DNA of 30,791 bases from Bacteroidia bacterium (GTDB taxonomy: Bacteria > Bacteroidota > Bacteroidia > CAILMK01 > JACPUW01). This document shows, piece by piece, positions 3 through 17,706 of this stretch (positions are counted from its first letter, which is position 1; every line of letters starts with the position of its first letter). The notes beneath the pieces are model-generated. The model saw only the letters and a program-made list of their open reading frames with translations. It was not told the origin of the DNA and searched no databases. The stretch lies in the NCBI GenBank assembly GCA_049599535.1, contig JBMYOR010000001.1:1-30791 (forward strand), given 5' to 3'. Made by a program: the position numbers and the translations under genes.

Positions 3-3000
3 AGCCCATCAAGCACTACAGTTTGTGTTGATGATGACCCAACTTTTACGGTTGTCGCTACTGGAGATGGACTCAATTTACAATGGCAAGAAGATGATGG
101 AACCGGATTTTCTGATCTAAGTGATGGTGGCGTTTATAGCGGTACGAGTTCTACTACTTTAACCTTAACTGATGTTACCGCATCCATGTCAGGCAATATT
201 TATAGATGTTATGTAACTGGTAATTGTACTCCAGATGCTACTTCGGGCACAGCTACACTAACTGTACATGCCTTACCAACATTTACAGGTAATCCAAGTA
301 GTACAACATATTGTTCTGGATCTGACGTTGATCTTTCGGCTACTGTTACAGGCACAAGCCTTACCTTACAGTGGCAAGAAGACGACGGAACCGGATTTAG
401 CAATTTAAGCAATAACGTTACTTATGCAGGTGTTTCAACTGAAGACCTTACAATCACAGCAGCAGGTGCAGGCCTTGATGGATATGATTACAGATTGGTA
501 GCCACCAATACCGGTTGCGGATCAGTAAACTCTTCAGCCGCTACCATTACAGCAACAGCGGCTCCTAGCGTAACAACTGCCCCAAGCAATTCAACAGTTT
601 GTGTTGATGATGACCCAACTTTTACGGTTGCAGCATCTGGTTCAAGTTTAGGTTACCTATGGCAAGAAGATGACGGGACAGGTTTTACCGACTTAAGCGA
701 TGGTGGAAAATATAGCAATACATCTACTACCACATTAAATATAACAGACGCTTCGGCTGCTATGGATGGCTATAAATACAGAGTGGTAGTTTCAAGCCCT
801 AGTTGTCCTTCAACTACATCGGCATCGGCAAATCTTACTGTAAATACTGCTCCGGCTATTACAGCACAGCCTTCAGATCAGTCGGCTTGTGATGGTGATA
901 ATATAAATTTTGCAGTTACAGCTTCAGGCGCGGGCCAAACTTTTGTTTGGCAAGAAGATGACGGAACCGGTTTTGCCAACTTATCAGATGGCGGAAAATA
1001 CAGCAATACAACAAGCAGTACATTAACAATATCAGGTATAACAGCCGCTTACGATGGTTATGATTATAGGGTAGTAATATCTGGTACATGTACTCCTGCA
1101 GTAACATCAAATAGTGGTGAACTTACGGTTGTAAGTCAAGTAGCCATAAGCTCAAACCCAAGTAGCCTTGATGTTTGTGTTGATGATGATCCAACATTTA
1201 GCGTTACAGCAAGTGGCGGTACTATTACTTACAAATGGCAAGAAGATGACGGGACAGGATTTTCTGACTTGTCTGATGGTGGTATTTACAGCGGTACAGG
1301 CACATCAACATTAGCCCTTACCGATGTTACAGCTACCGAAGATGGTTATGATTATAGATGTTATGTTACCAGTACTTGTGGTAGCCCCGTAACATCAAAC
1401 ACCGCAACACTTGGTGTTGATGTTGCACCTATAATTACCGCAAACCCAGGTGATTTATCGAAGTGCGAAACAGAAAGTGCAACTTTTAATGTAACTGCAG
1501 CAATAGGTACTAACTTGAGCTTTCAATGGCAAGAAGATGATGGTACCGGATTTGCAGATTTAAGCAATGGTGGTGTGTACAGCAATGTTCAAACTTCATC
1601 ATTGTCAATATCATCAGTTAATTCTGGTATGAACGGATATGATTACCGTTGTGTGGTTACAAATAATGGTTGCGGCAGTGCCAATAGTGGCAGCGCCACC
1701 TTAACTGTTTTAGAAGCTCCATCAATAAGCGCCCATGGCGGAAACATGACAGAGTGCGAAACTGATGATGCAGTATTTACCGTTACAGCTTCGGGCTCAA
1801 ATATTACTTTTCAATGGCAAGAAAACACAGGAGCTGGTTATACCGCCTTATCAAATGGTGGCCAGTATAGTGATGTGCAAACAAATACCTTAACAGTTTC
1901 AGGAGTTTCAGCTTCTATGCATAAATACATTTACCGTTGTGTTGTTTCAGGTACATGTAATCCTTCAGCTACTAGTATAAACGACACCCTATTTGTATTA
2001 GAAGCACCAATTGTTACAACCGACCCTAGTGATGCTACTATTTGCGAGGGTACAAATACATCTTTTACAGTGGCCGCTACAGGAGATAATCTTGTTTATC
2101 AATGGCAAGAAGATGATGGAACAGGGTATGCTAATTTATCAGACGGCGGAGTATATAGCGGAACAGATGGTACCACACTATCAATTACAGGCGCTACATC
2201 TGGTATGGATGGATATAAATACAAATGCGTAGTTGACAACAGTGCTTGTACCGAAGATATTTCGGCTGAAGCAACATTAAATGTTCAAGCAACACCTACG
2301 GTTACAGCCGATCCGAGCGATGTTACTATTTGCGAAAACACAAATACTTCATTTACAATAACTGCTACAGGCAGTAACCTTGATTTTGTATGGCAAGAGG
2401 ATGATGGCAGTGGATTTTCTGATCTAAGCGATGGGGGAGTTTACAGCGGAACAGATGGTGCAACATTGTCTTTAACAAATGCCGATGACAATATGAACGG
2501 TTACAAATACCGTTGCATTATCGATAATTCTGAATGTACCGAAGATATTTCGGCTGAAGCATTATTAACAGTGCAAGTGGCCCCATCAGTTACTGCAAAC
2601 CCTACCGATTCAATTATTTGTGAAGGTAACGATGCCACATTTACTGTTGGCGCCAACGGATCTGCGTTGCAATTTGTATGGCAAGAGGATGATGGTAGCG
2701 GTTTCTCTGACCTAAGTGATGGTGGAGTTTACAGCAATACAGATCAAACTACTTTAACAATAACCAATGCTACTGCAGCAATGGATGGTTACGAATACCG
2801 AGCGGTTGTAGGTAATAGTCAATGCACCGATGTAATCTCAAATTCAGCAACATTTACGGTGCAAACTGCTCCAAATGTTACGGTTGATCCTTCTGATGCA
2901 ACAATTTGCGAAAGTTCAAATACTACTTTTTCAGTTACGGCAACGGGCAGTAATTTAGATTACCAATGGCAAGAAGATGATGGTAGCGGATTCTCTGATC

Positions 3001-5459
3001 TAAGCGATGGTGGAGTTTACAGCAATACCGATCAAATTACTTTATCTATAACTGGTGCTGGCACCGGAATGGATGGATACAAATACCGATGCGTAGTTGA
3101 TAATAGCACATGTACAGCAGATATTTCGGCTGATGCGACATTAACGGTTCAAACAGGTCCGTCAATTACATCAAACCCAATAGATTCGTTAATATGCGAA
3201 GGCAACAATGCAACATTTACGGTTGCAGCATCAGGCTCATCATTAGATTATCAATGGCAAGTTGACGATGGTAGTGGATTCTCTGACCTAAGTAATGGTG
3301 GAGTTTACAGCAACACTGATCAAACTACTTTAACAATTACTGGCGCTACCACTGCTATGAATGGATTTGATTACCGAGTGGTAATTGACAACAGTCAGTG
3401 TACTGGTTTAAATTCTAGCGCAGCTACATTATCAGTTCAAACCTTACCAAACGTTACTACCGATCCAAGTGATGTTACCATATGCGAAAACACCAATACT
3501 ACTTTTACAGTTGCGGCAACAGGTAGCAACCTTACCTTTTTATGGCAAGAAGATGATGGTAGCGGATTCTCTGATTTAAGTAACGGTGGAATTTACAGCA
3601 ATATCGATCAAGCAACAATGACAATAACTGGAGCAGGATCAGGAATGGATGGCAATAAGTACCGATGTGTTGTAGACAACAGCACATGTGCTGCCGATAT
3701 TTCTGGCGAAGCAACAATTACAGTACAAGTAAACCCAAGTGTTACAACAAACCCAAGCAACGCCACAATTTGCGAGAATACAGGAGCTAAATTTACAGTA
3801 GTAGCATCAGGCTCAAGCCTTACCTTTTTATGGCAAGAGGATGATGGTAGCGGATTCGCCGATTTAAGTGATGGTGGAATTTACAGTGGAACAAGCACTA
3901 GCACGCTTTCAATAAGCTCGGCGGCATCGGGTATGGATTTATACGAATACAGAGTAGTGGTTGACAACAGTCAGTGTACCGATGTAACATCAAACGCAGC
4001 TGTATTAGATATTCAAATTACACCTGGTATTGCTAATAGCCCAGTATCAACAACTATTTGCGAAAGTGATAATGCAACATTCTCAGTAACCGGTACGGGT
4101 TCAGATTTAACTTACCAATGGCAGGTTGACAATGGCACCGGATTCTCTGATTTAAGTGACGGTGGAGTTTACAGCAATACCGATCAAGCAACAATGACAA
4201 TAACCGGTGCAGGATCAGGAATGGACGGCAATGAATATAGATGCGTAGTTGATAATTCTACTTGTAGCCCAGCTACATCAAATGCGGCAACTTTATCAAT
4301 TGATGCCTTACCTGCAGTAACATCAAACCCAACAGATATAACAGTTTGTATAAATGATGATCCAACATTTAGTGTTACGGCAACAGGTGCTGGTGCCGCA
4401 TTGCAATGGCAAGTTGACGATGGCAGTGGTTTTGCCGATATTTCAAATGGTGGAATTTATACAGGTGCAACAACATCAACCCTGCAAATTACAGATGCTA
4501 CAGCAACTGAAAACGGATACGAATACCGATGTGAAGTTACAGGAAACTGTACCCCGGCCGCATACTCTACTGCTGCTACATTAACTGTTCAAACTCCTGC
4601 ATCAATTACTACAAATCCTGCTGATGTTGCGGTTTGCGATGGTGGTAATACTAGCTTTTCAGTAGTAGCATCAGGCTCATCATTAGATTATCAATGGCAA
4701 GTAAATGATGGAAGCGGTTTTGCCAATTTATCAAATGGAGGTATATATAGCGGAACAGATAATGCAACATTATCAATTACAGGAATAACTACTACTCTAG
4801 ATGGATACGAGTACCGAGTTGAAGTTGATAACGCAGCTTGTACATCAACCCTATCTACGGCAGGAGAAATTACATTCTTGGCGTTACCAAATGTTACATC
4901 AGACCCAACAGCATCAACAATTTGCGAAGGTGGTAATACAGCATTTAGTATTACAGCAACAGGAGCGGGTGCAGCGTTTCAATGGCAAGTTGATGACGGT
5001 ACGGGATTTGCTGATATTTCAAATGGTGGAATTTACTCAGGTGTAACTACCAATACCCTTAGCCTAACTAGCGCACCAGTTACCAACAATGGCTATGATT
5101 ACCGATGCGTAGTTTCAGGTACTTGTACACCAAATGATATTTCGAATAGCGCAACATTAACTGTTGATGCCACACCTACCATATCGGTTCAACCAAGAGA
5201 TACAAGCCTTTGCGAAAGCTTCAATACGTTTTTTGCGGTAACAGCATCAGGTACATCAATTCAATACAAATGGCAAATTGAAGATAATGGTGTTTTCACC
5301 GACCTTACTGCCGCCGGCCGATACAACAGTGTAGATAAAGCCACCATGGTACTTACCGATTTAATTTCTTCAATGGATAGTACTTATTACAGAGTAGTGG
5401 TTGAAGGACCAAATTGTCCAGACGCAGTTTCAGATACGGTAATGTTAGATGTAAAGGCA
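3..5459 (+). repeat. Tandem array of 19 Ig-like repeats, period 96 aa / 288 nt (first one partial, one of 97 aa)
   Basis: Recurrent P..T..P.D.T.C....TF.V.A.G..L..QWQEDDG.GF.DLSDGG.YS.....TL.IT.....MDGY.YR.VV....C....S..ATL.V. Hand count: 90 + 17x96 + 97 = 1819 aa. Confidence 0.92.
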
Positions 5460-8400
5460 AACTCTACAAAACCACACCCTTTTGCAACACAATATGATTT
5501 TTGCGAAGAGAACTCATCAGATTTATATGCTCAATTTGGTATTGAAGGTGATAACTCAACTATTGAATGGTACACAGGTCCAAACGGAACAGGCACCAAC
5601 TTTGCAAGTGGAGAAGGTCCAATTTCGGTTTCGCCAACCGATACAATTACTTATTATGTAAGAAGAGAAGGCGAGTGTAACACCACCGATGATACCACCA
5701 TAACACTTAATGTACACCCTAAACCAACTGCCAATTTTAAAGCCTTTGAAACATGCGAAGGTTTGGCAACATTAGTTTACGATTCATCAACAGTGGCACA
5801 AGACTCAATTGTTAAGTTTGAGTGGGACCTAGGCGATGCCGGTACATCAAGTCTTAAAAATGTATCTCATGTGTATTCAAGCACGGGTACTTATGATATT
5901 AACTTGGTAGTTACTACAAAAAGTGGTTGTACCGATACCATTACAAAATCTACAGTAATATACGAGCAACCAGAGGCTGACTTTAGTGTTAGCAGCGTTT
6001 GTTTAAATGAAACTACCAGTTTTACAAACAGCTCGAGCATTACAGGTACAGCAACACTAAGCTACGATTGGAACATGGGCGACGGAGCAGGTACTTCAAT
6101 TGCCACAAATCCTGATTATACATATAATGCAACTGGTGGGTACACAATTCAACTTAAAGTAACGTCATCAGATGGGTGTATTGATTCAGTAAGCAGATCA
6201 ACCAATATTTTTATGTTGCCTGATGCCGACTTTGACTTTACAAACGCTTGTTTAGGAGATGATGTAAACTTTACCAATAAATCAAAAATTGGAACAGGAA
6301 CGCTTACCTACGAGTGGGATTTTGATGATGGCAATTCTGCCAATACAATTTCGGCCACAAATAGCTACTCAGCGGCAGGGGTTTATGATGTTGAGTTAAT
6401 TGCTACTAGTAACCAAGGATGTAAGGATACTGTAATAAATGAAGTTGAAACTTATGCCCTACCTACGGCGAGCTACACATTTACAAGCGCATGTCAAAAC
6501 GATCAAGTAACGTTTACCGATAATAGTACTAACCCTACATCATCAAAACTTACCTACGAGTGGGATTTTGACAACGGAGCCAGTAGTACAAGTAAAAACC
6601 CACAAGTAAGCTATACCACAGCCGGAAGCTATGATGTAACATTATTAGTAACATCGGCCGAGGGTTGTGAAGATGATACCACCACAGCAGTTGATGTTTA
6701 CGGAATACCTTCAGTTAGTTTTACAACCAACAAGGTATGCGATGGTTTTGCAACAACATTTACAAACGGATCAAAAAGTACAGATGCTAGCTCGCTCTCA
6801 TTTATATGGCGATTTGGCGATGGCGACACAAGTCAAAGAGTTGCACCATCACATTCATACGCATCGGCCGGAACTTTTGTAGCAACCTTAATTGCAGTTT
6901 CAGCAAATGGATGTACCGATTCAACAACGGCACCCGTAACAATTTGGCCAAAACCTGATGCCAATTATAGAGTAAGTAATGTTTGTGAGTCTGATTCTGC
7001 TGAATTCTTTAACCTTAGCACAATTTCAACAGGAAACTTTACAAGCCTTTGGAATTTTGGCGATGCATCTACATCAACCAAAACTAGCCCTAAGCACAAG
7101 TACTTAACAGATAATACGTATAGTACCAAATTGATTGTAACAAGTGGCAATGGTTGTCAAGATTCGGTTTCGCAGAATTTAGAAATTTACCCAATGCCTG
7201 GCGCAGATTTCACCTTTACTAATCAATGTGATGGTGATGAAGTTGACTTTACCAACCAAACTGCTGTAACTACAGGTACACAATATGTTTGGGCCTTTGG
7301 CGATGGATTTGGATCAACTACTCAAAACCCAATGCATACCTATGCATCATCAGGTACTTACAATGCAAGCCTTACCGCCACTACGGCAAACGGTTGCATT
7401 GAAACCACCTTACCTAAAACGGTAACCATTTTCCCAAGAGTTAATCTTAACTTTAATGTAGCCAATGTATGCGACGGCGATTCAGTTTCTTTTGTAAACA
7501 CATCGTTCCTTAGCGCTGGTACCGCACAATATGCTTGGAATTTTGGTGATGGCAACGGCGTAATTGGACAAAATAATGCCAAGCATTTATATGATACGTT
7601 TGGGGTATATGGTGTTACACTTTATGGCCGTACCGATAATAACTGTATAGATTCAATTAAGCAACAAGTAAATGTATACGCACAGCCAATAGCCAAATAC
7701 ACGGTTGCTAGTGATTGTGAAGGCAACTTTACCGATTTTCAAAATACCACTGTATTGGCCGATGGTGTTGGTGTAACCTACATATGGGATTTCAATAATG
7801 GCTTTAGTTCAACTTTGGCATCTCCTAAACATCAATACCAAACATTTGGAACCTACAATACCGAGTTAGTTGCAGTAACCAATGATGGTTGTATTGACAC
7901 TGCTAAAAGAACACATAATGTTTGGCCAAATCCTGATGCAGCCTTTAAAACATTTGGTAGTACTACTAATGAGGTTTCAGAGCTTTGTATTTACGAAACA
8001 GCCAACTTTACCGATATATCAACTATTGATGCAGGTAAGGTAATAAATTGGGTTTGGAACTTTGGAGATGCAACATCGCAAAGTGGCCTAAAAACTGTGC
8101 AGAAAAACTACATACTACCAGGTGTATATGAAGTTGAATTAGTAGCTGAATCAGATAGCGGTTGTACCGATGCTGTGATTCAAAAATTTGAAGTATTACC
8201 TAAACCAGATGTTGCCTTTACTTTTAAAGATACCTGCGAAGGTTTTGGTGTACAATTCAATAATCAAAGTACAGTAAGCAAAGGTCAAATGAGTTTTACT
8301 TGGGACTTTGGCGATAACGAGAAATCTACACTAAGAGAACCAATTCATGCTTACGCAACTGCGGGCACTTACCCAGTAACACTTATTGGTATTAGTACTG

Positions 8401-9164
8401 ATGGTTGTTTAGATACAGCTGGCCCTGCTGATATTGTAATTCACGAAATTCCGGATGCTACTATTACAAGCAACATAGGGGGATTTGAGTTTTGCGAAGG
8501 TGATTCAGCAATATTGAGTGTACCTGAAGTAACAGGGTATACCTATGTGTGGAGCAACGGAGATTCTGGCCCATCAACCACAGTAAAAGTAGGTGGTGTG
8601 TACGAGGTAACTATTACGAGCGCATTTGGATGTACAAACTCAAGCCAGCAATTAGTAACTGTTTGGGTAAGGCCAACCGCCAATGCCGGCGAAGATGTGA
8701 CTATTAGTAAAGGTTACAGTACCGAGCTTGTAGGAGATGGTGGATTATTCTTTTATTGGAGCCCTGGCCAAACGCTTGACGATTCACTAAAACAAAACCC
8801 AATTGCTACACCATTAATTGATGAAACCTACCAATTGGTAGTTGAAGATGGCAACGGTTGTTTAGATACTGCATCAGTTAACGTAACTGTTGAAGAAGAC
8901 TACTTACTAGAGCCTTCAGATATATTTACACCAAACGGAGATGGAGTAAACGAATTCTGGGTAATTAAAAACATTACTACTTATCCAGATTGTGAGCTAA
9001 TTATAACCAACAGGTGGCAACAAATAATTTACAGCACCAGCCAATATGCAAACGACTGGGACGGTACATTTAACGGAGCACAGCTACCAACAGGAGCATA
9101 CAATTACCTTATTAAGTGTGGTAATGGTAGAATTTATACAGGAACAGTTAATATTTTAAGATAA
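3..9164 (+). CDS. Giant T9SS type B-CTD surface protein/adhesin (19 Ig-like repeats, 1 further Ig-like domain, 11 PKD domains, 2 short Cys-containing beta repeats, gliding-motility-associated CTD); 5'-truncated by the window
   Basis: The frame is open from base 3 (SPSSTTVCVDDDPTFTV...), so ATG 186 is an internal Met. C-terminus IFTPNGDGVNEFW...NRW...WDGT..G..LPTGAYNY....G...YTGTVNILR matches the type B (CHU_C/TIGR04131-like) CTD. A PorP/SprF gene follows immediately. Confidence 0.93.
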   Translation, partial: SPSSTTVCVDDDPTFTVVATGDGLNLQWQEDDGTGFSDLSDGGVYSGTSSTTLTLTDVTASMSGNIYRCYVTGNCTPDATSGTATLTVHALPTFTGNPSSTTYCSGSDVDLSATVTGTSLTLQWQEDDGTGFSNLSNNVTYAGVSTEDLTITAAGAGLDGYDYRLVATNTGCGSVNSSAATITATAAPSVTTAPSNSTVCVDDDPTFTVAASGSSLGYLWQEDDGTGFTDLSDGGKYSNTSTTTLNITDASAAMDGYKYRVVVSSPSCPSTTSASANLTVNTAPAITAQPSDQSACDGDNINFAVTASGAGQTFVWQEDDGTGFANLSDGGKYSNTTSSTLTISGITAAYDGYDYRVVISGTCTPAVTSNSGELTVVSQVAISSNPSSLDVCVDDDPTFSVTASGGTITYKWQEDDGTGFSDLSDGGIYSGTGTSTLALTDVTATEDGYDYRCYVTSTCGSPVTSNTATLGVDVAPIITANPGDLSKCETESATFNVTAAIGTNLSFQWQEDDGTGFADLSNGGVYSNVQTSSLSISSVNSGMNGYDYRCVVTNNGCGSANSGSATLTVLEAPSISAHGGNMTECETDDAVFTVTASGSNITFQWQENTGAGYTALSNGGQYSDVQTNTLTVSGVSASMHKYIYRCVVSGTCNPSATSINDTLFVLEAPIVTTDPSDATICEGTNTSFTVAATGDNLVYQWQEDDGTGYANLSDGGVYSGTDGTTLSITGATSGMDGYKYKCVVDNSACTEDISAEATLNVQATPTVTADPSDVTICENTNTSFTITATGSNLDFVWQEDDGSGFSDLSDGGVYSGTDGATLSLTNADDNMNGYKYRCIIDNSECTEDISAEALLTVQVAPSVTANPTDSIICEGNDATFTVGANGSALQFVWQEDDGSGFSDLSDGGVYSNTDQTTLTITNATAAMDGYEYRAVVGNSQCTDVISNSATFTVQTAPNVTVDPSDATICESSNTTFSVTATGSNLDYQWQEDDGSGFSDLSDGGVYSNTDQITLSITGAGTGMDGYKYRCVVDNSTCTADISADATLTVQTGPSITSNPIDSLICEGNNATFTVAASGSSLDYQWQVDDGSGFSDLSNGGVYSNTDQTTLTITGATTAMNGFDYRVVIDNSQCTGLNSSAATLSVQTLPNVTTDPSDVTICENTNTTFTVAATGSNLTFLWQEDDGSGFSDLSNGGIYSNIDQATMTITGAGSGMDGNKYRCVVDNSTCAADISGEATITVQVNPSVTTNPSNATICENTGAKFTVVASGSSLTFLWQEDDGSGFADLSDGGIYSGTSTSTLSISSAASGMDLYEYRVVVDNSQCTDVTSNAAVLDIQITPGIANSPVSTTICESDNATFSVTGTGSDLTYQWQVDNGTGFSDLSDGGVYSNTDQATMTITGAGSGMDGNEYRCVVDNSTCSPATSNAATLSIDALPAVTSNPTDITVCINDDPTFSVTATGAGAALQWQVDDGSGFADISNGGIYTGATTSTLQITDATATENGYEYRCEVTGNCTPAAYSTAATLTVQTPASITTNPADVAVCDGGNTSFSVVASGSSLDYQWQVNDGSGFANLSNGGIYSGTDNATLSITGITTTLDGYEYRVEVDNAACTSTLSTAGEITFLALPNVTSDPTASTICEGGNTAFSITATGAGAAFQWQVDDGTGFADISNGGIYSGVTTNTLSLTSAPVTNNGYDYRCVVSGTCTPNDISNSATLTVDATPTISVQPRDTSLCESFNTFFAVTASGTSIQYKWQIEDNGVFTDLTAAGRYNSVDKATMVLTDLISSMDSTYYRVVVEGPNCPDAVSDTVMLDVKANSTKPHPFATQYDFCEENSSDLYAQFGIEGDNSTIEWYTGPNGTGTNFASGEGPISVSPTDTITYYVRREGECNTTDDTTITLNVHPKPTANFKAFETCEGLATLVYDSSTVAQDSIVKFEWDLGDAGTSSLKNVSHVYSSTGTYDINLVVTTKSGCTDTITKSTVIYEQPEADFSVSSVCLNETTSFTNSSSITGTATLSYDWNMGDGAGTSIATNPDYTYNATGGYTIQLKVTSSDGCIDSVSRSTNIFMLPDADFDFTNACLGDDVNFTNKSKIGTGTLTYEWDFDDGNSANTISATNSYSAAGVYDVELIATSNQGCKDTVINEVETYALPTASYTFTSACQNDQVTFTDNSTNPTSSKLTYEWDFDNGASSTSKNPQVSYTTAGSYDVTLLVTSAEGCEDDTTTAVDVYGIPSVSFTTNKVCDGFATTFTNGSKSTDASSLSFIWRFGDGDTSQRVAPSHSYASAGTFVATLIAVSANGCTDSTTAPVTIWPKPDANYRVSNVCESDSAEFFNLSTISTGNFTSLWNFGDASTSTKTSPKHKYLTDNTYSTKLIVTSGNGCQDSVSQNLEIYPMPGADFTFTNQCDGDEVDFTNQTAVTTGTQYVWAFGDGFGSTTQNPMHTYASSGTYNASLTATTANGCIETTLPKTVTIFPRVNLNFNVANVCDGDSVSFVNTSFLSAGTAQYAWNFGDGNGVIGQNNAKHLYDTFGVYGVTLYGRTDNNCIDSIKQQVNVYAQPIAKYTVASDCEGNFTDFQNTTVLADGVGVTYIWDFNNGFSSTLASPKHQYQTFGTYNTELVAVTNDGCIDTAKRTHNVWPNPDAAFKTFGSTTNEVSELCIYETANFTDISTIDAGKVINWVWNFGDATSQSGLKTVQKNYILPGVYEVELVAESDSGCTDAVIQKFEVLPKPDVAFTFKDTCEGFGVQFNNQSTVSKGQMSFTWDFGDNEKSTLREPIHAYATAGTYPVTLIGISTDGCLDTAGPADIVIHEIPDATITSNIGGFEFCEGDSAILSVPEVTGYTYVWSNGDSGPSTTVKVGGVYEVTITSAFGCTNSSQQLVTVWVRPTANAGEDVTISKGYSTELVGDGGLFFYWSPGQTLDDSLKQNPIATPLIDETYQLVVEDGNGCLDTASVNVTVEEDYLLEPSDIFTPNGDGVNEFWVIKNITTYPDCELIITNRWQQIIYSTSQYANDWDGTFNGAQLPTGAYNYLIKCGNGRIYTGTVNILR
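5715..8441 (+). repeat. Tandem array of 11 PKD-like domains (~82 aa)
   Basis: Recurrent P.A.F.....C....F.N.S......Y.W.FGDG..S....P.H.Y...G.Y.V.L...S..GC.D; W-x-F-G-D-G is the PKD signature. Confidence 0.88.
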
Positions 9165-9190
9165 TGGCTCATAGCTTAAGAAATAATAAA

Positions 9191-11140
9191 ATGAAGAAGT
9201 TAATCATCATAGTAATAGCGGCCATCTCATTTACAGCATTAAAAGCACAGCAAATACCGCTTTATACGCAGTATTACAACAATGAGTTTTTATATAATCC
9301 ATCTCAAACCCTTACCGACGATTATTCATCGTTGAGTTTATTTTACCGTAAGCAATGGATTTTGAGTGAGAGCCCATTAGTAACGCAAGGGGTAGTTTTT
9401 CAAACCCCGCTCAAAACTGAAAAAGTAGGTTTAGGGGTAAATCTTATTAATGATAAGTTCGGTATTTTTAATCGTACCGGTGCGTCAATGGCCTACTCTT
9501 ATCAGGTTGACCTAAACGCCGATCATAAACTACTATTAGGCCTTAGTGCTGGTTTTATGAACACCAATTACGATTGGAATCAAGATGTTTCAATTTTATC
9601 AGATCCGCGTTTTCAAGAGGCTATAACAGATAGAGTAACATCTTTTGACGCAACATTTGGTTTTACTTACAAGTGGAAAGAACTTGAAGTAGGTGTGGCT
9701 ATACCACATTTATTGGCCGATGATCTTGATTTTACTGTTGAAAGCTCAGACTTGCTTTACTTTAATTATCGTCATTATGTAGCATCGGCCGCATATCAGT
9801 TTAGATTTGGTGATGATAAGTACGGTTTACGTCCTTTGGCACTAGTGAGGTATCAACCAGCTGTAAATCCTTTGTTTGATATAAACGCTGTATTTGATTA
9901 CAATCAGAAAGTATGGGCTGCTGTAGGCTACAGATACGAAGGTGCCATGACATTTGGCGCCGGTGTAAAATTGCATGATAGGTTTAATATAGGTTACTCT
10001 TATGATATGAACCTAAACAGCGATTTAACTCAGTATTTTGGAGCCACACATGAAATCAATTTGTCGGTAAACTTTGGTGCATCGTCAAGCTTTGGTGGCG
10101 GAACTAAAGATAAGAAGAGACCAGATTGTTTGGAGTTTGAAAATGAAGATGGCATTATGACTGAAATATGTCTTGAAGATCTTCAGAAAGAAATTTCAGA
10201 TTTGAAAAAAGCCAATGCTGATCAAGATTCAACCATTGAAGATCATGAAGAAAGAATTAAGCGGCTTGAGAATAAGGTGAGAAAAGACTCACTTGAAGAG
10301 ATTATGAAAGGCATTTTAAATGATATGAAAGTTGGTAGTGGCTATATGGACATTAAAGGAGATAACCTTGAAATGACAGGAACGCCAAACCCTATTTTAA
10401 ACCCTAATGATAAAGACGGTAATGTTTGGGGGTATCATGAAGATGGGACACCAATTAAGCCATTTGAAAAAATTAAAAGTGGTGAATCTGTTTATACTGA
10501 TCCTAACGCTGAGAATATAGTTGCCGATCCAAAAGCCGGAGTTACACTTTATGACGAAAATGGAAATGAGATTAAAGACCTTAGCAACTACACCGGTAGG
10601 GTTAAGGATGTAGATGGTAATTATGTTAAAGGCCCTGATGGCAAGTACCTTTATTACAACAACGAAGGGTACAACGATAATTATAACAATGGTGGCGGCG
10701 GTAATAATGGCGGCGGTACTTATAATGGTGGTGGTAACAAAGGCCGCAATAACAACGGAGGTGGTGATGCCACTGGTGGTAACAATAATGGCGGCAGTAA
10801 TAACAATGGTAACTCAGGCCGTGGTAATGGAAACAACAATTCAGGTAGATCACCAGTTAAAACTTACTCGCCAACCGAACTAATGGATGATGGTATTAGA
10901 TATACCGCACCCGGAAATTACGTTGTAGTAGGATCATACCGTAGTAAAGAGTACGCCATTGCAATGAGAGAAACCTTGCAAGACAAAGGTTACAGTGCGG
11001 GTATTGTTTACAATCACTTTAGAAAATGGTTTTATGTTTATACACATGAGAGCAACGATTTTGATAAAACCCTTCAACTTTTAAGACAAGAGCAAACTGG
11101 CGATTATAGCGACGCCTGGGTGCATGTTATAATAGAATAA
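9191..11140 (+). CDS. PorP/SprF-family T9SS outer-membrane barrel with C-terminal coiled coil, N/G-rich linker and SPOR domain
   Basis: Signal peptide MKKLIIIVIAAISFTALKA followed by QQIPLYTQY...YNP (PorP/SprF N-terminal motif). Barrel ends ...GATHEINLSVNF (~10075). C-terminal GNYVVVGSYRSKEYA...L..KGY.A.I......F.V......F..T..L........YSDAWV fits SPOR. An alternative in-frame ATG at 9164 overlaps the upstream stop (TAATG); 9191 is preferred for its A-rich upstream context and clean signal peptide. Confidence 0.88.
   Translation: MKKLIIIVIAAISFTALKAQQIPLYTQYYNNEFLYNPSQTLTDDYSSLSLFYRKQWILSESPLVTQGVVFQTPLKTEKVGLGVNLINDKFGIFNRTGASMAYSYQVDLNADHKLLLGLSAGFMNTNYDWNQDVSILSDPRFQEAITDRVTSFDATFGFTYKWKELEVGVAIPHLLADDLDFTVESSDLLYFNYRHYVASAAYQFRFGDDKYGLRPLALVRYQPAVNPLFDINAVFDYNQKVWAAVGYRYEGAMTFGAGVKLHDRFNIGYSYDMNLNSDLTQYFGATHEINLSVNFGASSSFGGGTKDKKRPDCLEFENEDGIMTEICLEDLQKEISDLKKANADQDSTIEDHEERIKRLENKVRKDSLEEIMKGILNDMKVGSGYMDIKGDNLEMTGTPNPILNPNDKDGNVWGYHEDGTPIKPFEKIKSGESVYTDPNAENIVADPKAGVTLYDENGNEIKDLSNYTGRVKDVDGNYVKGPDGKYLYYNNEGYNDNYNNGGGGNNGGGTYNGGGNKGRNNNGGGDATGGNNNGGSNNNGNSGRGNGNNNSGRSPVKTYSPTELMDDGIRYTAPGNYVVVGSYRSKEYAIAMRETLQDKGYSAGIVYNHFRKWFYVYTHESNDFDKTLQLLRQEQTGDYSDAWVHVIIE
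10658..10846 (+). repeat. Low-complexity Asn/Gly-rich coding stretch (AAT/AAC/GGT/GGC-rich)
   Basis: NNEGYNDNYNNGGGGNNGGGTYNGGGNKGRNNNGGGDATGGNNNGGSNNNGNSGRGNGNNNSG. Confidence 0.9.
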
Positions 11141-11159
11141 TCCTGTGTTATTATTTAAG

Positions 11160-11198
11160 AAAGCCTCTACCTTTTCTGGGTAGGGGCTTTTCTTTTTT
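11160..11198 (+). terminator. Intrinsic terminator after the adhesin-sprF pair
   Basis: AAAGCCTCTACC (11160-11171) pairs with GGTAGGGGCTTT (11179-11190) with one G-U, followed by TCTTTTTT. Confidence 0.85.
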
Positions 11199-12558: not shown

Positions 12559-13641
12559 TTGTCGTTAAATGCTTTAAATATCCATGATCTTGGCGAAAAG
12601 GCGCTAGCCGCTAGGCGAAAAACAATTCATAATCTTGATCATGTTTTAATTGAGTTCGAAACAGCCTTTTTACAAGGTCGTGGCAAGCTGCATTGGGCGG
12701 CTGACGATAATGATGTTTTTCAAATAGTAAACAAAGTTTTGCAAACTGCAAACCGAACTGAATACTATATTGAAAATGATCCGATAATTACCGAACTTGA
12801 TTTAAAAAGCAGGCTAAAATCTAAAGCCAATTTAAAAAATAGCAGCGAGCTAACTCAATCGCTAGCATACATATGCGGTTGTGCATTTATTTGTGCCGAA
12901 TCGCCTACGGCCTACTTTAATAAAAAAGGAGTATCAAATATATTTTTAGATCAAAATACCTTACCGGTATTAATAGTTTCAATAGATCAATTGCTATTAT
13001 CATTAATTGATTTGCATGCTCTGGCCCCTTTATTGTGTCAAACATCAAATGATGCATTTGAGCTAATATCATTGCTTAAACAACCAAAACTTAATGTAGT
13101 AATAGTTGATAATGGCAGATCAAAACTTTTAGCCAAAACACCACAAAACAAGCTTTTAGAACTTAGCCATCCTAAATACTTTTTAAAAAACAATTCTGAT
13201 GCAAGGTTAATAGAATCGATATATTATGGGCATTTGGCAAAAAATGACCCGCTCAGTTTGGTTAACAACTTTTGTTTAGATGGTTACACCAAAAACTCAC
13301 TCTTATTAAATATCGATATCACTGAGATTGTAATAGCAGGTAGAGCTATTAAGGCAGAAAAAAACAAGAGTGAAAACGATTTAATTTGGCGTTCGTGGAA
13401 AAGTGCAATGCTTAGCCGTAAGGTGTTACGTCGTAGCCGATTGGGCCCTATTTCGTTAATGAAATCGTTTTATAAAAGAGGGTTCGGAAGTTTAAGAAGT
13501 TTTCCTAAAACCGAAAAAGGTAGTTTTAGTGAGCAATGGGTAAAGCAAAGGCCAAATGTTGTGCATTCAAAAAAGCTTACCGATATACCAAAGGGGCAAT
13601 TATTGGTGCGCAAACCAGCAACCGATGGGCTTAATAATTAG
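12559..13641 (+). CDS. Degenerate LutB/YkgF-like (LUD-domain) protein lacking the Fe-S cysteine motifs
   Basis: NLD..L.EFE..F....GK..WA.D, V.I.DNGR..LLA, ...NIDI and the C-terminal G.LR.FP.....SFS.QW are collinear with LutB as I recall it. No CxxCxxCxxxCP motif. TTG start directly after the rpiB TAA. Open for 360 codons. Confidence 0.72.
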   Translation: MSLNALNIHDLGEKALAARRKTIHNLDHVLIEFETAFLQGRGKLHWAADDNDVFQIVNKVLQTANRTEYYIENDPIITELDLKSRLKSKANLKNSSELTQSLAYICGCAFICAESPTAYFNKKGVSNIFLDQNTLPVLIVSIDQLLLSLIDLHALAPLLCQTSNDAFELISLLKQPKLNVVIVDNGRSKLLAKTPQNKLLELSHPKYFLKNNSDARLIESIYYGHLAKNDPLSLVNNFCLDGYTKNSLLLNIDITEIVIAGRAIKAEKNKSENDLIWRSWKSAMLSRKVLRRSRLGPISLMKSFYKRGFGSLRSFPKTEKGSFSEQWVKQRPNVVHSKKLTDIPKGQLLVRKPATDGLNN

Positions 13642-13644
13642 GTT

Positions 13645-14619
13645 TTAAAAGGGTAAATAGTCTTTATCAAGATAGTTTTGTACGTAATCTTTGACTCCTT
13701 GCGCTAAGCTTGTAAAAGGCTTGTCATAGCCAATGTTTTTTAGCTTTTGCATATTGGCCTCAGTAAAATATTGGTATTTGTCCCTAATGTCTTCAGGTGT
13801 ATCAATAAATTCAATTTTTGACTCAAGATTAAGGGATTTAAATACACCAGTAGCTAAATCTAAAAAGGTTTGTGCCTTACCAGTACCTAAGTTGTAAAGT
13901 CCGTTGTTTTGTGGTTTTCGATTTTCTAAAAGCCAAATAATTACATCAACCACATCTTTTACATAAATAAAGTCTCTTTTTTGTTCCCCGTTTTTATAGT
14001 CTGCATTATGAGACTTAAACAGGCTCATGCTGCCTTTAATTTTTATTTGATTATAAGTATGGTAAACCACTGATGCCATTCTGCCTTTATGATACTCATT
14101 AGGCCCGTAAACATTAAAAAACTTAAGGCCAATCCAGTAGTATGGCTTTTTATCCTGTGCCAAAGCCCATTTGTCAAAGTCGTTTTTACTTTCGCCATAA
14201 GGGTTAAGGGGCTGCAATTGATTTAATATTTCGTGAGTATCGTTATACCCCAATTCGCCGCCACCGTATGTAGCAGCCGATGATGCATAAATTATCGGAA
14301 AACCATATTCTACACACTTTTGCCAAAGCGATTTGGTATAATTAAGGTTTAAGTGATCAAAAATTTGGGTATCGAACTCGGTGGTATCGGTTCTTGCGCC
14401 AATGTGAACAATAAACTCAATCTCAATGTAATGGCTATCAATCCATTCAATAAACTCTTCGCGGTCAATTTTGTTGATATTTTCAAAACCTATAAGATTG
14501 TTGGCCTTAGCAGTTTTGCTAAAATCATCAACCAATAATAAATCTTTGTATCCTTTATTGTAAAGAGAATGAGCTACACAACTACCAATAAATCCTGCTG
14601 CACCGGTTACCACAATCAT
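13645..14619 (-). CDS. rfaD: ADP-L-glycero-D-manno-heptose 6-epimerase
   Basis: MIVVTGAAGFIGS, H.GA.TDTT, YASSAATYG, PLNPYGESK (YxxxK), FFNVYGPNEYHKGRMAS, RDFIYVKD, YQYFTEA. Confidence 0.95.
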   Translation of the reverse strand: MIVVTGAAGFIGSCVAHSLYNKGYKDLLLVDDFSKTAKANNLIGFENINKIDREEFIEWIDSHYIEIEFIVHIGARTDTTEFDTQIFDHLNLNYTKSLWQKCVEYGFPIIYASSAATYGGGELGYNDTHEILNQLQPLNPYGESKNDFDKWALAQDKKPYYWIGLKFFNVYGPNEYHKGRMASVVYHTYNQIKIKGSMSLFKSHNADYKNGEQKRDFIYVKDVVDVIIWLLENRKPQNNGLYNLGTGKAQTFLDLATGVFKSLNLESKIEFIDTPEDIRDKYQYFTEANMQKLKNIGYDKPFTSLAQGVKDYVQNYLDKDYLPF

Positions 14620-14623
14620 GCTG

Positions 14624-14631
14624 CAAAATTA
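14624..14631 (-). promoter_or_regulatory. -7 element for rfaD
   Basis: Plus strand CAAAATTA = TAATTTTG on the minus strand, 4 nt upstream of the rfaD ATG. Confidence 0.68.
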
Positions 14632-14706
14632 CAAAGCCATATGCAGCAATTAATGGTATTAAGAAGTAAGCTGTTAATTTGCAAACCCATTACCTCCTAT
14701 AGTATT

Positions 14707-17706
14707 ATGCGTACTTTATTACTTGTGTTTACTTTTGGCTTACTACCGTTTATTGGCCTTGGGCAGTTTGCGCTAAATGGTTCGGCTACAAAAGTGTCTG
14801 ATTCAATTTACCAACTTACACCAGCTCAAACCGGTACGGTGGGTAGTATTTGGGATTCAACTAGGCTCGATGTATCAAAGAGTTTTGATATTAGTTTTAA
14901 TTTAAGATTTGGATGCAACAATGGCGGAGCCGATGGAATTGCCTTTGTATTACAGCGTGATATTGATGGGTTAAGTGCTTTGGCTAAAAATGTAAACCGC
15001 ATGGGGTATCAAACGGCTATTGGCAACTCTGTGGCATTTGAGTTTGATACCGAAAATGATGGAACAAATGATATTGGCCCTGACCACGTGGCAATTCATA
15101 AAAATGGAGCTCAAAATTCGGTGTTGGCAGGGCCAGAGAGTATGTACCTAGATGCCCGAAATGTTGAAGATTGCGGACTGCACCGAGTTAGAATTACCTA
15201 CAACAGTGCCAATAATGCTGTAGTTGTATATGTAGATTGTCAGCAGCGTATAAGCACTAAAATAGACTTAAAAAACGATATTTTTAACGGTGCTAACAAT
15301 GTTTGGATGGGCTTTACGGCATCAAACGGAAGCACTAATACCCCTCATTTGGTTCAATGGATTGGCAATACAAGGCCATTAACCTTTGGTTTAGATGTAG
15401 CAGCGGTTTGTCCCGATTCAATTCAATTAAAGTCGGCTGATCTTAACCGCAATGAGTTTACAAATCCAAAATGGGAGATTGTTTATAAGGGCAATACAAT
15501 AAGCACAATTAATAAATATAAATCAGTTTATAAAGCCCCGCAATTAGGGAATTATGAAATTAAGCTTAGTGTGCTAAGGGTTTGCGATAGTGTAAATCTT
15601 AACCGTCAAACTACAGTAAAAGCTATTGACGAAACCGATGTTTCTCTAAGCTATGAGATAGATACGTTTTGTGATAATTTTAAATTAAGGGTTAATACCA
15701 GTTGTTTAACCTGCAACGATTTACAATGGGATTTCGGTTCGCAGGCGGCTGCTTGGGGATTTCCTAATCAAATATTGAATTTTACCCGCAGCACGCATAC
15801 CAATGCAACATTTATTGCCGAATCTCGAAACGGTAGTTGTTTTGCCAAAGATTCGCTACAGTTTGATTTAAAAGTATTAAATAAATATGCCCCATCAATT
15901 GCTTTTAATAATGATACAATATGCGGTGGCGATAGGCTACTAATTTCAGTTGATCCTAGTATAGGCGATTCTGTAGGTTTTGAATTTACACCAGGTTTTG
16001 GGTTAAACCCTGTGGGCAAAGCGGGGCTAGATACTATAAGTTTGGCACCAACGGGTTTTGGTACTTTAGGGGTATACAGATCGGTGCATTATCCAAAATA
16101 CTCATGTATTTTTAACGATACGCATTTTGTACAAGTAGATACTTTTCCTGTAGCAGATTTTTTAGTTTTAGATTCAAGCAAAAACTGCAATAAGGTAGTT
16201 TACAATTTCCAAAACAAATCGCTTTATGCTTCAAATTATAAGTGGCTTACAACTTACGATACGGTTAGGGTTCAAGATTTGAGCACATTGGTAACATTTC
16301 CGAGGCAGTTTAGTGTAAGGCTAGTTACTGTAAATGGTGCTTGTAGAGACACAGCCCTATGGAAAACCTTGCCCGACTTATATTATGCCCCCGTAAGTAG
16401 TTTAAGTTCAGATTCAACTGAAGGTTGCTCGCCTTTTGAAACAACATTTAATTGGAAATCTGAACCACTTGATTCATATTTTATTGATTTCGGAAACGGT
16501 GTAGATTCATTTGGAACAAAGCGAAATGAAACCATTAAAATGGACTATACATCAGGATTTTATGATGTAAAATGGATTACTTATTCGGGTAATGGAAATT
16601 GCATAGACACTACCATTTTAAGCGAATATATTATAGTGAGAGATTCGGTTGAAGCCGGGCTCGGTATTGCCGATTTTGGTGGTTGTCCACCTTTTAGGTT
16701 AGATATTAGCGATAGTAGCTTTTTTGGTGATGCAGATATCCAAAATAAGTATGTGTCGGTTTCAACCAGCGATAATTTGAATTTTAGGCAGGTTTATTTT
16801 TTAAATGATGAAGATACAACTCTTGAAAACGAAGGTATTTACAATGTGGTATATTACGTAAGCAATGGCTATTGTACCGATACCGTTTTTGAGCAAGTTG
16901 AAGTAAAAGGACTTACCAAAAAAGATACCGTTGAGCTTTACGGTGTAACTATAGATGACAACCTGAATGCCAATTATAGCTGGAAACCAGAAGCGGTGGC
17001 ATCTTATTACGATGTATCAAGGGTAGATGATGCGGGTTCTGAAAGAATATTTGCTCAAATTATAGATACCGCTCTTATTGATCATTCTATTAATGCAACA
17101 CGTACCGAATATAAATATACCGTTACCGCAGTAGACGATTGTGGATCGCGCAGTGCGGAATCTCAAATTTCAACTACCATACTGCTTACCGGCGAAGTAA
17201 ATGAAGAACAAATAGCGCAGCTTAGCTGGACCGAATATGAGTATTATCCGGGCGGTGTAAGAAACTACGTAATTGAACCCATAAATGGCACCAAGGTAAA
17301 TACCAATGGTACCCAGTTTTTCGATGATGAATTTTTTGATTTAAGTAAACCCGATACAGGCAGGTGCTACAGAGTTTATGCTTATGAAAACGGCGGCGAT
17401 AGTTTTATAAGTGCTAGTAATATTTTATGCCTTTCGCCACAAACTCAAGTTTATTTTCCTTCGGCTTTTTCGCCAAATAATGATGGCGATAACGATACCT
17501 TTAAATGGAAAGGAGTAGGGGTGAGATCTACCAATTTGCGTATTTACAATAGGTGGGGGCAAAGGGTTTTTGATGGCGAAAACGAATGGGATGGTACTTT
17601 TAACAACACCATTTGCCAAGATGGCCTTTATTACTATGTGGCTACAATGGTAGGCTCAAACAACGACACCTATTTTTATAAAGGAGAGATTTATTTAAGA
17701 CAATAA
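14707..17706 (+). CDS. T9SS type B-CTD surface protein with N-terminal L-type (legume-like) lectin domain, PKD-like/Ig-like and FN3-like domains
   Basis: Start moved from 14569 (overlaps rfaD) to ATG 14707, which gives the signal peptide MRTLLLVFTFGLLPFIGLG-Q. Lectin motifs GADGIAFVLQ and VAFEFDT..D....DHVAI. CTD FPSAFSPNNDGDNDTF...IYNRWGQ.VF....WDGT......G.YYY. Confidence 0.87.
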   Translation: MRTLLLVFTFGLLPFIGLGQFALNGSATKVSDSIYQLTPAQTGTVGSIWDSTRLDVSKSFDISFNLRFGCNNGGADGIAFVLQRDIDGLSALAKNVNRMGYQTAIGNSVAFEFDTENDGTNDIGPDHVAIHKNGAQNSVLAGPESMYLDARNVEDCGLHRVRITYNSANNAVVVYVDCQQRISTKIDLKNDIFNGANNVWMGFTASNGSTNTPHLVQWIGNTRPLTFGLDVAAVCPDSIQLKSADLNRNEFTNPKWEIVYKGNTISTINKYKSVYKAPQLGNYEIKLSVLRVCDSVNLNRQTTVKAIDETDVSLSYEIDTFCDNFKLRVNTSCLTCNDLQWDFGSQAAAWGFPNQILNFTRSTHTNATFIAESRNGSCFAKDSLQFDLKVLNKYAPSIAFNNDTICGGDRLLISVDPSIGDSVGFEFTPGFGLNPVGKAGLDTISLAPTGFGTLGVYRSVHYPKYSCIFNDTHFVQVDTFPVADFLVLDSSKNCNKVVYNFQNKSLYASNYKWLTTYDTVRVQDLSTLVTFPRQFSVRLVTVNGACRDTALWKTLPDLYYAPVSSLSSDSTEGCSPFETTFNWKSEPLDSYFIDFGNGVDSFGTKRNETIKMDYTSGFYDVKWITYSGNGNCIDTTILSEYIIVRDSVEAGLGIADFGGCPPFRLDISDSSFFGDADIQNKYVSVSTSDNLNFRQVYFLNDEDTTLENEGIYNVVYYVSNGYCTDTVFEQVEVKGLTKKDTVELYGVTIDDNLNANYSWKPEAVASYYDVSRVDDAGSERIFAQIIDTALIDHSINATRTEYKYTVTAVDDCGSRSAESQISTTILLTGEVNEEQIAQLSWTEYEYYPGGVRNYVIEPINGTKVNTNGTQFFDDEFFDLSKPDTGRCYRVYAYENGGDSFISASNILCLSPQTQVYFPSAFSPNNDGDNDTFKWKGVGVRSTNLRIYNRWGQRVFDGENEWDGTFNNTICQDGLYYYVATMVGSNNDTYFYKGEIYLRQ

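Follow-up and report, generated by a model that had tools for sequence, protein, structure and literature searches.

The window analysed here, a 30,791-nucleotide stretch of DNA from a Bacteroidia bacterium, contains near its beginning a giant T9SS cargo gene followed by a gene for a PorP/SprF-like shuttle with a long C-terminal tail. The features of this gene pair, apart from the tail, are the following.

3..9164, + strand: open reading frame of a giant T9SS cargo/adhesin, its 3' 3053 codons (Pfam Ig_3, I-set, Ig_7, PKD_4 and CHU_C)
8916..9143, + strand: type B C-terminal sorting domain (CTD) of the cargo, residues 2972-3047 of 3053
9164..11140, + strand: SprF-SPOR shuttle gene, start at 9164 or 9191, signal peptide ending at about nucleotide 9247
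9242..10066, + strand: PorP/SprF outer-membrane β-barrel of the shuttle (PF11751, residues 27-301)
11159..11191, + strand: hairpin resembling an intrinsic terminator, with a T run (14-bp stem, 6 of 14 pairs G-C)

The cargo and its shuttle

The cargo frame is open at its 5' end, where the contig edge removes about 1,290 N-terminal residues. Its residue 2 in the window aligns to residue 1292 of a same-genus orthologue, a 4345-aa open reading frame with a signal peptide, and the full cargo has about 4,300 residues. Pfam analysis revealed about 20 Ig_3/I-set domains, one Ig_7 domain and about 11 PKD domains, and no SprB-repeat match in frame 3..9164; giants with SprB repeats are present elsewhere in the genome. 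The extreme C-terminus of the cargo carries a sorting domain that exceeds the cut-offs of both PF13585 CHU_C (E 2.8e-19, 69.5 bits against 27) and TIGR04131 (68.8 bits against 35), identifying the protein as a T9SS type B CTD cargo.

The shuttle gene lies directly downstream. It starts either at 9164, where its ATG overlaps the cargo stop codon as TAATG, or at 9191 after a 26-nt gap, the latter being the public gene call (649 aa). Its barrel matches PF11751 over residues 27-301 (E 4.4e-62, 210.5 bits against a cut-off of 22.3) and TIGR03519 (220.4 bits against 90.55), so that curated cut-offs are exceeded across the whole barrel and the shuttle is a member of the PorP/SprF family. Chance is of no concern here, because all domain matches except that to SPOR have E<1e-15. 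Past the terminator-like hairpin, tatC starts at 11241. The arrangement of cargo and shuttle is repeated at orthologous loci, and the order giant cargo, SprF-SPOR, tatC and rpiB is kept in three other MAGs, with whose cargos the last 654 residues of the present one share 69-82% identity. Structure prediction docked the cargo CTD on the barrel with a score of 0.75, against 0.04 for the best of three controls; among 78 solved complexes, 51 attain a mark of 0.75, and among 108 mismatched pairs, 2 do. The predicted complex supports binding of the two, short of demonstrating it. An earlier note on this DNA had read the locus as a type B cargo paired with its own SprF-like protein and closed by a terminator. 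Gene order, the CHU_C/TIGR04131 and PF11751/TIGR03519 matches and the hairpin all bear this reading out, and both checks that the note had proposed for it, a HMMER search with PF11751 and a structure prediction of the CTD with the barrel, came out in its favour, the second at the level of a model.

The tail of the shuttle

Beyond the end of the barrel at about nucleotide 10066, the protein continues for about 355 residues. First comes a helix of about 50 residues, then a conserved module and a Gly/Asn linker, and last a C-terminal domain.

10169..10324, + strand: long helix (about 51 residues), putatively periplasmic and probably forming a coiled coil (AF2 helix at tail residues 33-83)
10364..10666, + strand: conserved middle module of about 100 residues, rich in D-G-x motifs (AF2 pLDDT 83-90)
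10667..10855, + strand: Gly/Asn-rich low-complexity linker (AF2 pLDDT 31-35)
10910..11137, + strand: divergent SPOR-type domain (β-α-β-β-α-β), a putative peptidoglycan-binding module (PF05036, AF2, Foldseek and VIA)

The helix holds a family-invariant H-E-x-R-I-x-x-L-E motif, in which H352, E353, R355, I356, L359 and E360 are invariant across an alignment of 15 orthologues, and weak coiled-coil Pfam matches occur in the tail. The middle module shows little regular secondary structure in the AF2 model and is conserved in all 15 orthologues; searches of Pfam, AFDB clusters and Atlas gave no informative match, and it might confer another function. In the same alignment the linker is nearly absent in some orthologues and reaches about 60 residues in others. 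The published drawing of SprF shows a barrel of 14 strands and places both termini on the periplasmic side (PMC9143113), a topology by which the tail of the shuttle would be periplasmic; as the barrel is even-stranded, its C-terminal domain should lie on that side too. The Pfam scan found no OmpA match in the tail. By its sequence the shuttle falls outside the PorE-like OmpA_C (PF00691) anchors, though it would be PorE-like in its working.

The C-terminal domain scores 20.4-20.7 bits against PF05036, just below the Pfam gathering threshold of 21, and a whole-protein Pfam scan at E<=0.01 reported no SPOR domain. At the level of the family, PF05036 matches all 15 orthologues (best E 8.4e-8) and, at E<=0.01, 54 of 59 SprF-linked SPOR domains, and a profile built from these 59 finds the SPOR domain of CwlC at E 9.5e-5. 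The AF2 model of the domain (pLDDT 96.1) has the order β-α-β-β-α-β; its top three Foldseek matches are CwlC, DedD and FtsN, and its AFDB matches are almost all SPOR proteins. VIA ranks an uncharacterised protein from Burkholderia (6ozd) first and gives Z-scores of 7.5 for CwlC, 6.9 for RlpA, 6.8 for DedD and 4.5 for DamX, while unrelated folds stay at 4.0 or below; the values of 6.8-7.5 are middling ones on a very common fold. With a mean column identity of 73%, where the tail as a whole has 48%, the domain is also the best-conserved part of the tail. Sequence evidence from the family and the predicted fold together confirm that it is SPOR-like despite the sub-threshold score. The earlier note had placed a SPOR domain at the end of the shuttle and had staked this on the domain scoring and folding as one: the assignment and the fold stand, whereas the protein's own PF05036 score stays narrowly under the cut-off.

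Spread of the fusion and exchange of wall-binding modules

SprF-SPOR fusions number three in this genome and five in a same-genus genome, G001. The shuttle itself has 15 orthologous clusters (571-634 aa), and at least 66 further clusters at 50% identity combine the barrel with a C-terminal SPOR domain. The helix and middle module are limited to one genus-level family, and the SPOR end is common to dozens of otherwise different tails. Wherever the gene upstream of a SprF-SPOR gene was scanned, it encodes a CHU_C cargo, and two unrelated barrel-SPOR clusters that were checked both lie downstream of CHU_C cargos. The fusion is thus widespread in metagenomic, uncultured Bacteroidota, and this survey of architectures and neighbouring cargos, which the earlier note had suggested, shows that the architecture is no rarity. 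Our literature search found no paper describing the SprF-SPOR architecture, nor binding or localisation data for one.

Paralogous shuttles carry other wall binders at the same position. No PorE-like neighbour is present at the three SprF-SPOR genes of this genome, wherever the downstream sequence is readable; two plain SprF genes of the genome (contigs C153 and C198) directly precede PorE-like genes, one encoding TPR, PD40, CarboxypepD_reg and OmpA domains (711 aa) and the other PD40 and OmpA. In G001, one SprF barrel that follows a PKD/CHU_C cargo has a fused OmpA_C domain in the position of the SPOR tail (L020:6167-7771), another precedes a gene for an OmpA protein of 719 aa, and an OMP-barrel protein combines OmpA_C with the SprF-linked SPOR type. 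SPOR, OmpA_C and PorE-like modules are therefore interchangeable among paralogous shuttles. This comparison provides the strongest functional evidence: where these paralogues have OmpA_C or a PorE-like gene, the shuttle has its tail, most likely as a built-in tether to peptidoglycan. It strongly backs the proposal of the earlier note that the wall anchor is built into the shuttle barrel.

Glycan-contact positions in the SPOR-type domain

Denuded glycan is recognised by residues Q251 and R285 in FtsN and by Q270 and R309 in RlpA (PMC6895207). The Gln forms a hydrogen bond with the glycan, and the Arg belongs to the basic patch that receives the lactyl carboxylate. In the SprF-linked domains, with the Gln position mapped by sequence alignment without superposition and the Arg position taken from the strand-3 register, the strand-1 Gln (FtsN Q251/RlpA Q270) is replaced by Val in the present domain and by V or I in 59 of 59, and the strand-3 Arg (FtsN R285/RlpA R309) by Tyr in 58 of 59. 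Paralogue P0166 retains the canonical Arg, as do three of the four further SPOR domains read from this genome. The Phe/Tyr corresponding to FtsN F255/RlpA F274 and the Trp corresponding to FtsN W283 are kept. Judged by these sequences, the SprF-linked domains form a SPOR subfamily with a sheet face rich in Tyr, Trp and His and without the canonical Gln/Arg. Because the replaced Gln and Arg are those that contact the MurNAc lactyl group, the ligand could differ from that of classical SPOR domains.

These substitutions bear on the suggestion of the earlier note that the adhesin may be placed at the septum or new pole. In this scheme the SPOR domain reads amidase-denuded glycan, so that shuttle and adhesin gather where the cell divides and pass to the new pole. 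The retained fold and aromatic residues speak for it, as does the fact that denuded glycan, which is enriched at the septum, is the ligand of every SPOR domain characterised so far (PMC6895207). However, septal or polar targeting is left unsupported because the Gln/Arg that read denuded glycan are replaced throughout the subfamily. Moreover, paralogous shuttles use the general wall binders OmpA_C or PorE-like proteins in the same position, which argues that anchoring, not an address, is the selected function, and a single genome holds up to five SprF-SPOR fusions for different cargos. We therefore regard targeting to septum or pole as unlikely. There is a small chance that the SprF-linked SPOR domain reads a cell-cycle-specific feature of the wall, either denuded or otherwise remodelled glycan, and so places adhesins at septum or new poles. 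If so, T9SS display would be spatially programmed by wall chemistry, with some cargos addressed by SPOR and others anchored everywhere by OmpA_C/PorE.

Discussion

The locus probably encodes a two-gene T9SS display unit, in which the SPOR tail pins the shuttle to the wall and the adhesin is static. In this putative model, the Ig/PKD adhesin of about 4,300 residues would be exported through the SprA translocon by means of its type B CTD, and the adjacent cognate PorP/SprF-like barrel would take it over and keep it on the cell surface. From the barrel C-terminus in the periplasm, the chain would run through a helix some 7-8 nm long, a small conserved module and a flexible Gly/Asn linker to the SPOR-type domain, which would bind peptidoglycan and thereby pin the shuttle to the cell wall. 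The adhesin would then be displayed as a static, load-bearing anchor that is not transported by the gliding machinery, and the tail would stand in functionally for the separate PorE-like OmpA_C protein of PorE-PorP-cargo complexes. We infer both the peptidoglycan binding of the tail and the immobility of the adhesin. The latter, already proposed in the earlier note, agrees with the behaviour of F. johnsoniae cargos, among which Fjoh_3952, encoded together with the PorE-like Fjoh_3950, is static, whereas those without a PorE-like gene move (PMC12618676).

This unit is reminiscent of several known systems. In the PorE-PorP-PG1035 complex of P. gingivalis, proposed to be anchored to peptidoglycan (PMC9143113), a PorP-family barrel with a link to peptidoglycan, putative in our case, likewise holds a type B CTD cargo. 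The P. gingivalis link, however, is a separate four-domain lipoprotein (TPR, β-propeller, CRD and OmpA_C), in contrast to a barrel-fused tail ending in a SPOR-type domain. Fjoh_3952/Fjoh_3951/Fjoh_3950 of F. johnsoniae share the operon logic of cargo then shuttle and the proposed wall anchoring that leads to a static adhesin, but they are three genes, whereas the present unit has two, with a fused putative wall-binding module of another fold family. The three-gene design is also found in this genome, on contigs C153 and C198. As in F. johnsoniae SprB/SprF, a giant repetitive type B cargo is followed by its cognate PorP/SprF gene; SprB is a mobile gliding adhesin, whereas the present cargo has Ig/PKD repeats and a shuttle whose SPOR tail predicts immobility. 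The domain itself resembles the SPOR domains of FtsN, DamX, DedD, RlpA and CwlC in its β-α-β-β-α-β order, in the G-S-F motif that ends strand 1 and in a hydrophobic/aromatic strand 3, yet it differs from them in having V/I and Tyr for Gln/Arg and in being attached to an outer-membrane barrel rather than to an inner-membrane anchor or an enzyme. Similar in layout, too, is the SprF-OmpA_C fusion of the same-genus genome, where a PKD/CHU_C cargo again precedes a PorP/SprF barrel with a C-terminal wall-binding domain, which there is OmpA_C and here SPOR.

Alternatively, the tail might serve as an adaptor to periplasmic machinery, the PorK/N-GldK/N ring or the gliding track, instead of a wall anchor. 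The helix and middle module would then link the shuttle to a complex that moves or secretes, with the SPOR-like fold as a protein-binding module. PorP contacts PorK, and SprF has been proposed to contact the Gld track (PMC9143113). The good conservation and confident modelling of a middle module lacking informative database matches are consistent with such a role, as is the loss of the glycan-reading Gln and Arg, and the SprB-repeat giants and GldK/J-like genes of the genome indicate that a gliding apparatus is probably present. Nevertheless, the restriction of helix and middle module to one genus-level family, with the same SPOR end on dozens of differing tails, the exchange of SPOR for OmpA_C among paralogues and the fusion of this SPOR type to OmpA_C in an OMP-barrel protein make an adaptor quite improbable.

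OmpA, Pal and Lpp staple the outer membrane to the cell wall. That the tail is a general envelope tether of this kind, to which the adhesin is linked incidentally, is suggested by the OmpA-like layout of barrel, spacer and wall-binding domain and by the OMP-barrel+OmpA+SPOR protein of the sister genome, but is very improbable for a specific PorP/SprF member that is co-transcribed with a type B cargo and predicted to dock its CTD, in a family whose scanned SprF-SPOR genes all follow CHU_C cargos.

The wall-anchored unit favoured here joins in one fusion the parts of wall-anchored display that have so far been known only as separate proteins. What makes type B cargo move with the gliding machinery or stay fixed is a current question of T9SS biology, and recent work in F. 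johnsoniae (2025) ties immobility to a PorE-like wall binder encoded nearby (PMC12618676). The genomes examined contain a natural series of four designs, namely the plain shuttle, the shuttle followed by a PorE-like gene, shuttle-OmpA_C and shuttle-SPOR. This series supports such a link and gives a minimal two-gene test system, in which deleting or transferring a single domain should make a mobile adhesin fixed or a fixed one mobile. A divergent SPOR domain under the Pfam threshold goes unnoticed in many database entries that bear no label but PorP/SprF, and the SPOR subfamily defined here, which has an aromatic sheet face and lacks the canonical Gln/Arg, may be of interest for its ligand specificity.

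The cargo–shuttle pair

The 5′ part of the window is occupied by a giant adhesin gene and a PorP/SprF gene, and the ORFs, the Pfam and TIGR matches and the downstream hairpin bore out both the coordinates and the description given for this pair in the earlier note. The source MAG, of which the window is contig C1, has 4.09 Mb in 1012 contigs and is 81% complete.

Features of the cargo–shuttle pair
3..9164: cargo ORF, 5′ end open, 3053 residues, with about 20 Ig_3/I-set repeats, one Ig_7 and about 11 PKD domains
Cargo residues 2972–3047: type B T9SS sorting domain (CTD), CHU_C/TIGR04131 match
9164 (ATG in TAATG with the cargo stop) or 9191 to 11140: shuttle ORF, signal peptide present
Shuttle residues 27–301: PorP/SprF barrel (PF11751, E 4e-62; TIGR03519, 220 bits)
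11159–11191: strong terminator-like hairpin closing the pair; tatC and rpiB come next downstream

A 97%-complete genome from the same genus contains a cargo orthologue, an ORF of 4345 aa that includes a signal peptide. As the first cargo residues in the window align to residue 1292 of this orthologue, about 1,290 residues are missing from the window. Complex prediction for the CTD and the barrel also favored the proposed pairing, giving a docking score of 0.75 versus 0.04 for the best control; 0.75 was attained in 51 of 78 solved complexes, against 2 of 108 mismatched pairs. The score thus supports the cargo–shuttle pairing as a prediction, and is no proof of it.

A second type B cargo (14569–17706, 1045 aa), with a legume-lectin-like domain and CHU_C, is followed by Peptidase_S51 and has no adjoining PorP/SprF gene; this "orphan" cargo must rely on a shuttle encoded elsewhere. 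The T9SS translocon gene sprA (23767–30789; SprA_N, E 8e-190) lies directly downstream of ruvA and maeB (malic enzyme), and is cut by the 3′ end of the window. A 360-aa ORF at 12559–13641 gave no Pfam match at E ≤ 0.01; its position beside rpiB is conserved at L005 and L006, two orthologous loci.

Architecture of the shuttle tail

Beyond the barrel, the shuttle continues with a tail of about 355 residues, the parts of which were delimited by AF2 on 15 orthologous tails together with the alignment of these tails.

Parts of the tail
10169–10324: helix of about 51 residues, predicted by AF2 and containing invariant alignment columns
10364–10666: conserved middle module, some 100 residues with many D-G motifs, pLDDT 83–90, almost no regular secondary structure
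10667–10855: Gly/Asn-rich disordered linker, pLDDT 31–35, length differing among orthologues
10910–11137: compact C-terminal domain of SPOR type

All 15 orthologues share, without change, the helix motif H-E-x-R-I-x-x-L-E (10244–10270). Conservation within the tail is highest in the C-terminal domain, where column identity averages 73% versus 48% over the whole tail. At 0.15 nm per residue, the helix would measure about 7–8 nm and, together with the linker, might provide the reach from membrane to wall; if the helix forms oligomers, the tail would be like an Lpp-like stalk. For the middle module, searches of Pfam, AFDB clusters and Atlas gave no usable match. Profile matches to WD40/STAND proteins and choline-binding repeats were short and repeat-like, and were judged to be repeat-pattern noise; matches of the tail to MAP70, DivIC and GrpE were dismissed as generic coiled-coil similarity. 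In paralogous tails (loci L002 and L022), dockerin/EF-hand-like Ca-loop matches stand in place of the middle module.

A divergent SPOR domain at the C-terminus

The SPOR domain that the earlier note had placed at the shuttle C-terminus is borderline on the window sequence itself (PF05036, 20.4–20.7 bits versus a gathering score of 21), although the wider evidence from homologs and predicted structures clearly points to a divergent SPOR subfamily. A whole-protein Pfam scan at E ≤ 0.01 gave no SPOR match, which surfaced only with the tail or the C-terminal end scanned alone, and a PDB search with the single domain sequence returned only noise. By comparison of relatives, SPOR was matched in 15/15 orthologues (best E 8e-8) and, at E ≤ 0.01, in 54 of the 59 SprF-linked C-terminal domains aligned. 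The 59-member profile searched against the PDB found the CwlC SPOR domain (E 9.5e-5), followed by FtsN.

The AF2 model computed with the 59-sequence alignment reached a pLDDT of 96.1 with a b-a-b-b-a-b order of elements, and replaced an earlier model of the whole tail built from 15 sequences, in which the SPOR part scored only 57–75. Foldseek against the PDB ranked CwlC, DedD and FtsN on top, yet with no E-value below 1e-3; VIA was needed to set SPOR apart from other ferredoxin-like folds. The VIA Z-scores were 7.5 for CwlC, 6.9 and 6.8 for RlpA, 6.8 for DedD and 4.5 for DamX, against at most 4.0 for unrelated folds; one uncharacterised Burkholderia protein scored 8.4. Matches of the domain among AFDB clusters were SPOR proteins almost throughout.

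Distribution of SprF–SPOR shuttles

The exact tail, comprising helix, middle module and SPOR, is confined to a narrow group of 15 clusters at 90% identity (3 at 50%) from three species-level MAGs labelled Bacteroidia, Bacteroidetes or "bacterium", and was found in every sampled genome of the genus. The barrel-plus-SPOR architecture is common, no rarity in sequence space: the tail-profile matches listed include at least 81 PorP/SprF barrels with a SPOR-type end (420–690 aa, some with two SPOR domains). At least 66 of them lie outside the orthologue family. Many of these proteins (for instance P0022, P0168 and P0171–P0174) bear only a PF11751 or PorP/SprF tag in precomputed Pfam tables and public sources, because the SPOR score falls just short of the threshold; counting architectures in databases will therefore yield too few fusions. 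Literature searches pairing SPOR with SprF, PorP or type IX secretion yielded nothing relevant; SprF–SPOR proteins are uncharacterised and absent from the literature searched.

Interchange of putative wall-binding partners

The most telling evidence on the role of the tail comes from comparing shuttles within and between genomes. Besides the window gene, the same MAG encodes two further SprF–SPOR proteins: one on contig C32, with two SPOR domains (55 bits), downstream of a 716-aa CHU_C cargo, and one on contig C608, downstream of a PKD/CHU_C cargo. Unrelated metagenomic examples are likewise located downstream of CHU_C cargos; at locus L013, the upstream gene is only a fragment, too short for class assignment. 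Contigs C198 and C153 of this MAG carry the classical three-gene design, in which a PorE-like gene overlaps the stop codon of a plain SprF gene ending at the barrel. Genome G001, from the same genus, has five SprF barrels with SPOR tails, another two or three that are plain, and one whose downstream neighbor encodes an OmpA protein of 719 aa.

Genes of the comparative series
L009:335–2470 (own genome, C198): PorE-like gene, 711 aa, TPR+PD40 propeller+CarboxypepD_reg+OmpA, the PorE architecture
L008:4320–5594 (own genome, C153): PorE-like gene, PD40+OmpA
L020:6167–7771 (G001, C5): SprF–OmpA_C fusion, 534 aa, with OmpA_C at the place of the SPOR tail, preceded by a PKD/CHU_C cargo at least 1983 aa long
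L021:1335–3293 (G001, C50): 652-aa protein with an OMP beta-barrel, OmpA_C and, at the C-terminus, SPOR of the SprF-linked type

At the level of gene and domain organization, SPOR, OmpA_C and a stand-alone PorE-like protein are interchangeable in this series as partners of cargo-specific shuttles. Their shared property would be peptidoglycan binding, which is putative for the SprF-linked SPOR domain. The outer-membrane protein at L021 combines two distinct wall-binding modules in one chain.

Proposed static display versus septal placement

The earlier note had interpreted the shuttle as a barrel with a built-in wall anchor that immobilises the adhesin and perhaps places it at the septum or new pole. 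Septal or polar placement is the most interesting possibility, and it relies on classical recognition of denuded glycan. In FtsN and RlpA, the best-documented glycan contacts are Q251/Q270 and R285/R309; F255/F274 and, in FtsN, W283 were compared as well (PMC6895207). We mapped these positions onto the 59 SprF-linked domains by sequence alignment, without superposition.

FtsN/RlpA positions in SprF-linked SPOR domains, as aligned by sequence
Q251/Q270: V or I in 59/59
R285/R309: Tyr in 58/59
F255/F274: F or Y retained
W283 (FtsN): W or Y retained
Last-strand Trp: invariant; counterpart in FtsN/RlpA not named

The aromatic positions are thus retained, but the two best-documented contact residues are absent across the subfamily; other SPOR domains read from the same genome have the Arg in three of four cases and the Gln in one of four. 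In addition, the interchange with OmpA_C suggests anchoring, not addressing, as the selected function. We accordingly regard septal or new-pole placement as improbable. In two weaker explanations, the tail would connect as an adaptor with PorK/N or with the gliding track, or the SprF–SPOR protein would be a general envelope staple.

The other part of the interpretation, wall-anchored static display, is favored by the paralogue series and by the literature. A PorE–PorP–PG1035 complex has been proposed to bridge the wall and the outer membrane (PMC9143113), and in F. johnsoniae, helical movement is seen for cargos that lack an accompanying PorE-like gene, as opposed to the static cargo that is encoded alongside one (PMC12618676). 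Given these reports and the series of tail types, we read the window pair as a probable fused form of a wall-anchored static display unit. It would resemble the peptidoglycan-tethered type B complexes in having a cargo and a shuttle, and differ in consisting of two genes with the anchor fused.

Gene content makes it probable that the organism has, in addition, a gliding apparatus and a mobile adhesin of the SprB type. On contig C21, numerous SprB repeats (PF13573) occur in a giant frame that is at least 3671 aa long, and GldJ/GldK-like genes occur on contigs C63 and C87, the GldJ match being below the model's cut-off in this 81%-complete MAG. The natural series of tail types gives direct access to the question of static versus mobile cargos.
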